This document shows, piece after piece, positions 45,001 to 48,000 of a stretch of 64,000 nucleotides of DNA. The stretch is from a plasmid. How positions within the stretch are numbered: position 1 is the stretch's first letter; each line of letters opens with the position of its first letter. Location: assembly GCF_988243305.1 (NCBI RefSeq), contig NZ_OZ547138.1. One strand, written 5' to 3'. The position numbers were made by a program.

Positions 45001-48000
45001 GAGGCGTATGCGCGGGATTTATTCCTGGACTCCTTCACCTTTATTGACGGTCATGTGTTCCGTCGGTGATTTACTCCCCCGCTCCGGCGGGGGTATGGCC
45101 TGCCAGGCCGCCGGAAAACCCTGGCAGGCTTACGCCTGCCTGAAATGCAGGAGGGCCGCGCCTGCGGCGCTGCCCTTCCTGCCCGTCATGGTGTGAGGCA
45201 TTTTTCTGTTATGTCGTTTCTGTTGTTCTGATTTCCGGAGGCGGGGACACCTTCGGCTCCCGGCTGCCTGGCGGCATCCGGTCGTCAGGCCCGACTCCGA
45301 CAGGCAGCTGCTGGCGCACCCGCCAGTCTCCGCCGAACCCGCTGGCGCGGTTTCGGGCTGCCGCTACGGTCCGATGTCTGAAAAACCAGGCTTGCAGCGA
45401 CCGTTCCGGTCGCGCCGCCTCTGTCGCGCCGTGACCTGCGCTCCCTGCACACCTGACGGTGTGTAAGGAAACTGCGCCTGATGGCGCAGTTGTCTGCCCT
45501 TCCGCCGCCACCCCTGCGGCCTGTTTCCCGCTGTGGACTTTCCGGGGGCTGAAGCGGCCACAACACGTGTCAGCCGTCCAGGGGGGAGATGTACCAGCCA
45601 CAAAACTTTTTGCCGCAAGCGTCAAAAACTTTTGCGTCTGCCCCCGGACAACTGCCCCGTGCCGTGGCTGTCGCTGCCCCATCGGAAAGGTCCACTGCGG
45701 GGAGAAACCCCGAAGAAGTGGACGGCAGAAGGGGCTTTCGCCCCTCCGGGGGAGCAACCGGTCGGCCCGGCGACCTGATTCAGCAGAAGGAGACGTTTTC
45801 ATGACAGTCAGCAGCACGATTTCCGTTTTTTGCCGCGACGGGGTGTTCCGTACCGTTTACTGCCACCTGCACGGTGAGCCGACCTGGAACGGTCGCATCC
45901 TGCATACCCACTATGCCACCGGTCAGCAGGCCGAAGCCCTGGTTGAACACGGTGATATCCGTTGCCTCGGTCCCCGTTGCGACAAACCCGCCGGGCATAC
46001 GCTTCAGAACCCGGTGGACGGTGTGACGGCTTATTACGGACGTGACAGTGGTTTCCGGATGGACAGTGAGGCGCGTGAGTACCGTTCTTTCAGGGAGGCC
46101 ATCGCCACGGAAAGCACTGAAGAGGTGCGCTTCCATTATGTGTTCATCGACGGCTACTGGAAGGTGATGTACCGCACGCCGGAAGGCTGGAAGATGAAGT
46201 CGCTTGCGCTGGCACTGCGCCGCTGTCCGAAATGAAAAAAAGGCAGGGCGATAAACCCTGCCTCTCTCCGCCGGCGCTTCCCCGCCAGGAAGCCCGGCAT
46301 CTCAATCACTATCTATGGAGATTATGCCATGAGACCATCAATTATCTTCGCAACCGCCGAGTATGTAAAGCGTCTGCGTGAAGAGTGCCTGCGGGAGAAT
46401 AAACCCCTGCACCGCCATACCCGCTTCAGACGTCAGGAGCTGGCACAGGATGAGATTAACCCGGACGTCCTGGCGATGAGCGGTCATATCGCCAGACGCT
46501 GCAGTGAGCAGAAGCGGGTGCGTATCCCCGCTATGAAAGCCAGCGAATGGGGCCACCTGCTCCGCGCGCTTGAAATTGAACGGGTCTGCCACTGATTAAC
46601 CCTTGCCGTCTGCCTGTGCAGGCGGCAGGATACGTTCAGACATCTCACCAGGAGGAACCGTGAGTAAGAAGAAAAACACCACAACGCCCACGCCGCATGA
46701 TGCCGCGTTCCGGTCGTTCCTGGCGAATCCCGACGTCGCCAGAGATTTTCTGGAACTGCATCTTCCGGCGGAGTACCGGCAGTTGTGCGACCTGTCCACG
46801 CTGAAGCTGGAACCCGCCACCTTTGTAGAGCCGGACCTGCATCAGTACGCCAGCGATATCCTCTGGAGCGTGAAAACCACCGGGGGTGAAGACGGCTATG
46901 TTTATACGCTCATCGAGCACCAGAGCACCGAAAATCTGTACATGCCTTTTCGCATGTTACGTTACAGTGTGGCGGCGATGCAGAGACATCTGGAGCAGCA
47001 CAAAACGTTGCCACTGGTGATTCCGGTGCTGTTCTATCACGGTGAGCGCAGCCCGTACCCGTACAGCATGAACTGGCTGGACTGTTTTGAGAATCCGGCA
47101 CTTGCGGCTAAAATATACACAAAGCCGTTTCCGCTGGTTGATATCACTGTCGTTGATGACAATGAAATCATGAATCATCGCCGGATGGCCGCACTGACGC
47201 TGCTGATGAAGCATATCCGCCATCGTGACATGATGGAGCTGCTGGACAAACTCCCGAAGGTCATGGTGGAAATTTCAGACGAGCAGGTGCGTGTTCTGAT
47301 TCATTACATCGTTAACGCAGGGGACTCTGTATCACCGGAATTTATGCGGGCGCTGGCTGAGCGTCTGCCGCAGCATGAGGATAAACTGATGACTATCGCA
47401 GAACGTCTTGAGCAAAAAGGTCGCCAGGAGGGCAGGATGGAAGGTGCGCTTGAAAAAGCCCTGGCTATTGCGTGCCAGCTTCAGAAAATGGGGATGACGC
47501 CGGAGCAGATTAAGCAGGCTACCGGGCTTTCCGATGACGAACTGAAGAAAATCACTCACTGATGAGAGTATCACAGCCCGGCAAAATGCCGGGCTTTTTA
47601 TCCAGCAGGAGCAGAGCAAACAGTATGACGCTTGCAGAACGTCTTATACAGAAAGGTTTTGAAAAAGGCGCTCTTGAAGTGGCGCGGGAAATAGCCTGTC
47701 GGCTTCGGGATATGGGCTGGCCGCCGAAACGGATTCAGGAGGCTACCGGACTTTCCGGTGAAGAACTGAAAAAACTGTTTCCTGATGAGCAGTAGCCTGG
47801 CATTCAGCCAGGCTGTGAATCACGCTCACACATCCTCTGCCGTTTCCCCCAGTTCATTTTCCAGACGCCTGATGATATCTGCCTTACGCATCCCCTGCAT
47901 GTGAGGCAGCAGGTCACGGACTGAAAGAGCCTGGGTGGTCCTCCAGACGGTGACGTCCACCTGTTCCGCATTTTCCCAGGCGTGCCATGTTCTCTGCGTC

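Follow-up and report, generated by a model that had tools for sequence, protein, structure and literature searches.

The nearest described counterpart of the plasmid locus reported here is the rpnE-ypaA pair of Escherichia coli K-12. The rpn genes belong to a recently recognised family of toxin–antitoxin and anti-phage systems. Our locus lies at positions 46660–47795 of a 64,000-nucleotide (nt) stretch of plasmid DNA (RefSeq assembly GCF_988243305.1, contig NZ_OZ547138.1), the whole of which is referred to as the window. It consists of an rpn gene followed by a small gene, here called B, that encodes only a copy of the Rpn C-terminal tail. In every rpn gene of E. coli, translation also starts at an internal site, which yields the C-terminal tail as a separate small protein, RpnS. 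The full-length protein, RpnL, inhibits growth, induces SOS and cleaves DNA, and RpnS blocks all three effects (Zhong et al. 2023, PMC10400941). RpnA, RpnB and RpnP2 are the cases in which the mechanism was demonstrated, and the plasmid-borne RpnP2-LS protects against T-even phages (PMC10400941).

The tail and its pairing have been characterised in some detail. In its crystal structure, RpnA-S forms a bundle of three helices, and helix 1 mediates dimerisation. The number of 4-amino-acid (aa) repeats in that helix is hypervariable among strains. Giving RpnC-S one more repeat abolished neutralisation, except when RpnC-L had the matching addition, and RpnA-S fails to block RpnB-L (PMC10400941). 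Separate stand-alone RpnS genes, designated RpnSs, are also known on chromosomes and plasmids, an example being ypaA after rpnE, and the YpaA/RpnESs protein of K-12 is detectably synthesised. Zhong et al. noted that rpnSs can disappear through deletion, or when the N-domain becomes fused to the rpnSs region, and the Pfam domain DUF4351 is said there to apply to RpnSs "in some species" (PMC10400941). A literature search covering 2024 and later years brought up no further work on what RpnSs proteins do.

We consider it probable that the window locus is an rpnLS toxin–antitoxin or defence gene followed by a diverged RpnSs gene, and that B is an accessory tail protein, not the primary antitoxin of its neighbour. 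A preliminary description of the locus had proposed that the separately encoded tail could serve as the inhibitor in a two-gene module. One part of that proposal stands, in that Rpn tails are demonstrated antitoxins and expressed stand-alone copies exist (PMC10400941). The other part is not supported. The locus is not a simple two-gene pair; the rpn gene has an internal start of its own, the ATG at 47389. The idea is a correct rediscovery of the published RpnSs class, and the arrangement was already described in 2023.

The rpn gene and its internal start

The rpn gene (ygdB of IncI plasmids; 46660–47562, + strand) begins with GTG and encodes a full-length RpnL of 300 aa, with a PD-(D/E)xK nuclease domain followed by a C-terminal tail of the kind called type A below. 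RefSeq labels the product an Rpn family nuclease. It matches Pfam Transposase_31 (PF04754) over residues 11–207 with an E-value of 1.9e-78, scores 184.6 bits against NCBIfam TIGR01784, for which the cut-off is 52.1, and is 49% identical to K-12 RpnE. The catalytic set is intact: D14, D66, E86, Q88 and R98 align with D11, D63, E82, Q84 and R94 of RpnA, and mutating any one of those RpnA residues abolished activity (residue list in PMC5350276). By the published family mechanism, the gene would encode a toxic nuclease. The PDDEI motif, invariant in the five K-12 Rpn proteins, is replaced by DDNEI at residues 168–172 (47161–47175), which reads as a variant with the acidic cluster retained. In RpnA, the D165A change within PDDEI gave a hyperactive, far more toxic enzyme (PMC5350276). 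PADLOC returned nothing for either Rpn or the small protein.

A second in-frame start is found at Met244 of Rpn. It is preceded at a distance of 8 nt by a Shine–Dalgarno (SD) sequence, GAGG, read off the sequence at 47377–47380 (+ strand). RpnA to RpnE all share the surrounding LMTIAERL with the window Rpn, and the motif stands at the same position as the published internal start. The open reading frame (ORF) from this start (47389–47562, + strand) encodes a type A tail of 57 aa, the predicted cognate antitoxin. Since rpn has its own in-frame internal start, as do all characterised rpn genes, rpn itself is the most likely source of the cognate antitoxin. Since that start is at the position equivalent to that in K-12, rpn should be a self-contained toxin–antitoxin unit and the downstream gene an extra copy. 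By analogy with its characterised relatives, the 57-aa RpnS would pair with the identical tail of RpnL via helix 1 and so block the nuclease. Helix 1 of the A tail holds two 4-aa repeats, GRQE and GRME (47419–47442, + strand), which number 0–5 in related plasmids. Pfam HTH_Rpn_C matches are precomputed on the fused tails. A consensus scan also located a sigma-70-like site within rpn, TTGAGA-16-TAAAAT (47087–47114, + strand, 10 of 12 matches), which is a candidate internal promoter for a short RpnS transcript. Internal transcription starts are reported for every K-12 rpn gene (PMC10400941).

These features bear on the proposal in the preliminary description that B is the main inhibitor of the adjacent Rpn, and that the two genes make up a dedicated toxin–antitoxin pair. 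That tail proteins inhibit Rpn nucleases (PMC10400941), that B is directly downstream of rpn on the same strand and that it is kept beside rpn in about 2,000 plasmids are all to be expected of such a pair. A conserved internal start with a good SD in rpn argues the other way, as do the spacer between the two genes and the repeat numbers in the two tails, taken up below.

The downstream tail gene

Gene B (47625–47795, + strand) encodes a stand-alone tail of 56 aa that is assigned to the RpnSs class by tail homology. The preliminary description had called the downstream ORF a paralog of the last ~55 residues of Rpn, and pairwise alignment by BLASTP agrees: B and Rpn residues 244–298 share 31 of 55 positions (56%) with one 4-aa gap and an E-value of 3e-16. 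The ORF can be read as 47562–47795 (77 aa) or as 47625–47795 (56 aa). The RefSeq product is the 77-aa form, a hypothetical protein beginning at an ATG that overlaps the rpn stop. The preliminary description had preferred 47625, and we reach the same choice. The sequence M-T-(I/L)-A-E-R-L at this start is invariant among relatives and falls at the internal Met that is conserved throughout the Rpn proteins, such that MTLAERL of B lines up with MTIAERL at the rpn internal start. The 77-aa reading from the ATG at 47562 was rejected; the spacer in relatives is 59, 62 or 63 nt, and this reading is in frame only in the 63-nt form.

Over aligned codons, the A and B tails have a DNA identity of 71%, a synonymous divergence (dS) of about 0.8 and a ratio of nonsynonymous to synonymous divergence (dN/dS) of 0.33. 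From these values, the duplication is old and both copies have evolved as coding sequence. A recent partial DNA duplication, the competing account that the preliminary description had raised, is ruled against by a dS of that size. Among ten alleles of B, with the repeats excluded, the corresponding ratio for polymorphisms (pN/pS) is 0.27 and the segregating sites are mostly in third positions; the fused tail gives 0.13. By these measures, B is under purifying selection. There are 327 cluster-level homologues of B in the protein database. The best 120 of the 327 are all stand-alone, with lengths of 56–93 aa, and the ORF is intact in nearly all of these 120 cluster representatives. When trimmed to the conserved Met, the B cores have lengths of 56, 60, 64, 68, 72 and 76 aa, representing 1–6 units of GF(D/K/E)(E/Q/K), and repeat-free forms occur too. 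Variation of this kind is a hallmark of RpnS. All of the observed length changes are in-frame 12-nt repeat changes. The window B has a single repeat, GFEK, in helix 1 (47655–47666, + strand), for which 0–6 copies are seen in related plasmids.

The predicted structure resembles that of an RpnS. A profile constructed from eight tails matches the RpnA-S structure, PDB 7TH0, over its full length with an E-value of 3.5e-12. The AlphaFold (AF2) model of B is all-helical with a mean predicted local distance difference test (pLDDT) score of 80.5, and its top Foldseek match in the PDB is again 7TH0, at a probability of 0.92 and 44% identity. By itself, the Foldseek E-value of 0.5 lacks significance for a domain this small. 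B is predicted to be a three-helix protein of 56 aa that dimerises in the manner of RpnS. The tail profile also drew PDB matches to designed PPR and DotG repeat proteins; these are low-complexity helical-repeat matches made up of many weak stretches and were ignored. Among the best 149 readable representatives matched by the tail profile, 68 are no longer than 100 aa and begin at a conserved M(T)IAE-like tail start. Stand-alone tail genes appear to be common by this count, in which some of the 68 may be contig-end fragments.

We asked whether B might not be a gene at all, but a chance or untranslated ORF left by the DNA duplication. It is short, it is behind a terminator with no promoter detected, and it is annotated only as a hypothetical protein. 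Set against that are the significance of its match to the Rpn tail, a conserved coding pattern of substitutions, length changes confined to whole 12-nt steps, a conserved start context with an SD-like leader, and the detectable synthesis of the K-12 analogue YpaA (PMC10400941). We regard this explanation as very improbable, and the RpnSs class membership and coding status of B as well supported.

The spacer between rpn and B contains an intrinsic-terminator-like hairpin (47575–47600, + strand) with a 9-bp stem including 7 G-C pairs, a 3-nt loop and a T run. The hairpin reads AGCCCGGCA-AAA-TGCCGGGCT plus the T run and is followed by the leader CCAGCAGGAGCAGAGCAAACAGT, and a spacer of this make-up precedes every free-standing tail. 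A terminator scan scored it as an intrinsic terminator, and in RNA folding it has a z-score of -3.0 and is retained in the centroid structure. The hairpin is kept in 18 of 18 spacer variants, in one of them through a double change from A-T to G-C. A terminator between the genes is contrary to the usual tight coupling of toxin and antitoxin, which is a second point against B as a dedicated antitoxin. After the hairpin comes AGGAG, read from the sequence at 47607–47611 (+ strand); it is 13 nt before the ATG at 47625, a distance that becomes 9 nt in the 59-nt spacer variant. Metagenome contigs were also scanned for the exact spacer pattern, which brought up a single locus and was uninformative.

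Tail cassettes and repeat numbers in related plasmids

About 85 related loci were recovered, and their tails are of three types. Type A tails have GR(Q/M)E repeats in 0–5 copies, and in the window the nuclease domain is joined to a tail of this type. Type B tails have GF.. repeats and are encoded by a stand-alone gene. Type C and C' tails have GIQ(K/Q) repeats, in 3–7 copies in the C tails. Naming the tail fused to the nuclease domain first, the architectures are A-B in 57 loci (the form in the window), C-B in 11, and C-A-B or C'-A-B in 7. The A tail is free-standing in loci L014/15, L044–49 and L087 and fused in other plasmids. By pairwise identity, B is 57–58% identical to the A and C' tails and 47% identical to the C tail of the same locus family, and 33–43% identical to the tails of K-12 RpnA to RpnE and YpaA. 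In the three-tail loci (L014, L015, L044–L049 and L087), the repeat numbers always differ within a locus, running 7/2/5, 6/2/5, 5/1/3 and 5/3/2.

The sequence 5' of the first tail is identical whichever tail follows, and the join falls within the conserved ATGAC.AT.GC.GAACGTCTT. This fits recombination between the 5' ends of cassettes, as outlined by Zhong et al. (PMC10400941). Each stand-alone cassette consists of the terminator hairpin, the conserved leader and a tail ORF. Related IncI/K/B/O plasmids carry arrays of two or three units (A-B, C-B and C-A-B) with the first fused to the nuclease domain, and B is the last unit of the tandem array. Recombination at the cassette 5' end (ATGAC.AT.GC.GAACGTCTT) would then shift the nuclease domain between successive tails.

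It could be supposed that B is a spare or relic cassette within such an array, a by-product of duplication that is raw material for tail switching or has not yet been lost, with no function as a protein. The variable membership of the arrays is in keeping with this, the same A tail being fused in one locus and stand-alone in another, and so are the weak or absent expression signals and the deletion or N-domain fusion to rpnSs noted by Zhong et al. (PMC10400941). We find it quite unlikely, given the pN/pS of 0.27 with its third-position bias, the dN/dS of 0.33 since duplication, and the ORF being intact in nearly all of the best 120 of 327 cluster representatives. Also against it, B is retained where rpn is broken: in L006, L043, L016 and L025, rpn carries a frameshift or lacks its N-terminal portion, and both tail ORFs and the small gene are intact. 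Furthermore, a search with a chimeric query yielded no nuclease domain reliably joined to a B-type tail, so B is apparently not used as a switch target. One apparent fusion from that search, P0270 (L080, a scaffold of GCA_001253335.1), was discarded; it lies among N-gapped, rearranged pieces and is probably a short-read assembly artefact arising from the shared cassette 5' ends.

Repeat numbers were compared as a test of cognate pairing, with equal numbers expected for a cognate pair. In the window, the A tail has two repeats (GRQE/GRME) versus one in B (GFEK). An identical B protein adjoins A tails with 1, 4 or 5 repeats. The commonest B allele, which has two repeats, adjoins A tails with 1, 3, 4 or 5 and never 2 among the loci read. 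There are 17 distinct combinations of repeat numbers in the 57 A-B loci, and only 1 of the 17 is an equal pair. The numbers in A and B are negatively correlated (Spearman -0.66 over the distinct combinations and -0.56 over 22 evenly sampled PLSDB plasmids). This correlation is partly lineage structure and is a lead, not a result.

The published one-repeat rule from RpnC, taken together with the mismatch of B and A, implies that B would not reliably inhibit its neighbour, and its inhibition of the adjacent Rpn is doubtful. B is 56% identical to the fused tail and has another repeat unit as well as another repeat number. Because B differs from the fused tail in both sequence and repeat number, it would have its own pairing specificity, as a second tail protein acting in an accessory or modulating role. 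We infer that an accessory tail with separate specificity ranks above a dedicated antitoxin, and a two-gene pair in which B is the main inhibitor of Rpn is unlikely.

Several observations weigh against B as an accessory tail protein. The rule of separate specificities is known only from RpnC and from RpnA versus RpnB. Helix 1 begins with 10 residues that are near-identical in A and B, and this makes cross-binding possible and also counts in favour of a dedicated antitoxin. Taking lineage into account weakens the pattern of unequal lengths; in the largest A-allele clade alone, rho is -0.41 with p of 0.16. Expression is the weakest point: the terminator-like hairpin is only 30 nt 5' of the B start, a scan for a sigma-70 promoter for the small gene found none, and the SD spacing of 13 nt is long. 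Lastly, a Pfam scan gave no significant family for the window B protein. Neither window B nor an 85-aa relative matches DUF4351 (PF14261) at an E-value of 10 or below, and that domain is not a strict requirement of the class. For HTH_Rpn_C (PF27070) the picture is mixed: matches, some of them flagged "faint", are precomputed on many close relatives of B and speak for the accessory-tail reading, and the family was not returned in the Pfam scan of window B.

The leading region and comparison with known systems

Around 44 to 50 kb, the window covers the leading region of a conjugative plasmid of the IncI-gamma/K type, and E. coli plasmid NZ_CP145695.1 matches it at 100% identity. The genes are, in order, psiB, psiA, ygaA, ardA, ygcA, ygdA, rpn (ygdB), the small ORF, ygeA on the opposite strand, ygfB, yggA and nikA-nikB. 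The rpn/small-gene locus is ~2.6 kb from nikA/oriT, on the ardA-psiB side, and the preliminary description was right to place it in the leading region. A 1.8-kb query from the locus matches ~2,040 PLSDB plasmids, mostly at 95–99% identity, the majority of which are typed as conjugative. Across the 64-kb window, tblastn finds two tail copies and one nuclease domain, and that is the entire tally. Rfam gave no match between 44 and 50.5 kb.

The unit of ygcA, ygdA, rpn and B is bracketed by two copies of a ~320-nt element, identified by direct repeats and folding. Copy 1 (45420–45737) is 5' of the unit and copy 2 is at 48278–48597. Most of the repeat segments are 82–91% identical between the copies, and one 35-nt segment is 71% identical. 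On the minus strand, the element folds into a single long imperfect hairpin of -117.7 kcal/mol with a z-score of -11. It looks like a class-1 single-strand DNA promoter of the ssi/Frpo type, judging from an inferred comparison with the single-stranded DNA (ssDNA) promoters of the IncI1 plasmid pESBL. Promoters of the ssi/Frpo kind power early leading-region transcription in IncI1 and F plasmids (PMC12672017). Because the flanking elements resemble such promoters, early expression of the ygcA-ygdA-rpn-B unit after transfer is plausible.

Three other features of the region were recorded. Just 5' of ardA, there is a 32-nt inverted repeat (44296–44327 and 44502–44533) with arms 91% complementary and 174 nt apart, which may be the hairpin-type ssDNA promoter reported there in IncI1 pESBL. 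The ygeA gene is a minus-strand helix-turn-helix gene (47826–48077), and directly upstream of it at 48078–48186 are two 42-nt direct repeats, each with the palindrome AAAGTGAA..TTCACTTT; these look like an operator for the ygeA regulator. Many relatives have an additional ORF of 129 aa between ygdA and rpn that is missing from the window. This ORF, ccgAII, which some annotations call CbiX, shares 4 nt with the start of rpn and is found, for example, at L002:3473–3862 and L069:473–862.

Leading regions are enriched in toxin–antitoxin genes and orphan antitoxins, the latter proposed to counter toxin–antitoxin defences of the host or of rivals (Samuel et al. 2024, PMC11541004). B might then be an anti-defence or immunity factor, an orphan-like RpnS acting early after conjugative entry against the Rpn nucleases of the recipient or of competing plasmids. 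It is a leading-region gene 3' of an ssi/Frpo-like element, it persists without an intact rpn in some plasmids, it is almost never equal in length to the neighbouring tail, and orphan antitoxins are the precedent (PMC11541004). On the other side, neither the listing of homologues nor the chimeric-query search turned up a nuclease with a B-type tail. B is also only 33–43% identical to the five K-12 chromosomal tails, and the published specificity is narrow. We judge this role improbable. We hold only tentatively, and as unlikely, the wider proposal that B is an orthogonal RpnS made on entry, either to provide immunity or anti-defence against Rpn nucleases that other elements encode or to act as a decoy, drawing off factors directed against the cognate antitoxin. 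If that were true, the C-A-B array would be a specificity-diversifying system for a plasmid-borne nuclease.

The locus occurs in about 2,000 sequenced plasmids of IncI/K/B/O type, and such plasmids are major vehicles of resistance genes for E. coli and Salmonella. It is among the first genes to enter the recipient cell. The locus provides a natural allele series, with two or three cassettes whose repeats vary independently, for testing how tail length and sequence set the pairing of nuclease and inhibitor. The same series could be used to probe the role of RpnSs copies. As a discovery, it is modest, the arrangement having already been published.

Among known systems, rpnE-ypaA of K-12 has the same plan as the window locus, with the rpn internal Met at residue 244 and a small tail-only ORF next on the same strand. 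Its small ORF starts at the equivalent Met too, there with MTIAERL, and the repeat number differs by one in both loci. An RpnSs of the rpnE-ypaA or rpnC-rpnCSs kind groups with its own upstream tail, as B does by pairwise identity. The differences lie in divergence, spacing and setting. The RpnE and YpaA tails are 79–82% identical versus 56–58% in the window locus family; the gap is 12 nt with a strong SD in rpnE-ypaA, whereas the window has a 62-nt spacer with a terminator hairpin. Unlike rpnE-ypaA, the window locus is part of an array of two to three cassettes in the leading region of a widespread conjugative plasmid family. RpnE is reported to be inactive, whereas the window Rpn retains all catalytic residues.

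RpnP2-LS of ECOR13, compared by its description, is plasmid-borne like the window rpn, and its short tail neutralises the toxic long form of RpnP2. It is the sole Rpn with a demonstrated defence phenotype, and the main text of PMC10400941 mentions no stand-alone downstream copy for it. RpnA-S (7TH0) has a three-helix tail domain that dimerises by a long helix 1, as predicted for B, and differs in being without the 4-aa repeat insert. The orphan antitoxins of leading regions (PMC11541004) are like B in being small antitoxin-type genes near anti-defence genes of the ardA and psiB type. B differs from them in having a member of the matching toxin family directly upstream, and Rpn is not mentioned in PMC11541004.

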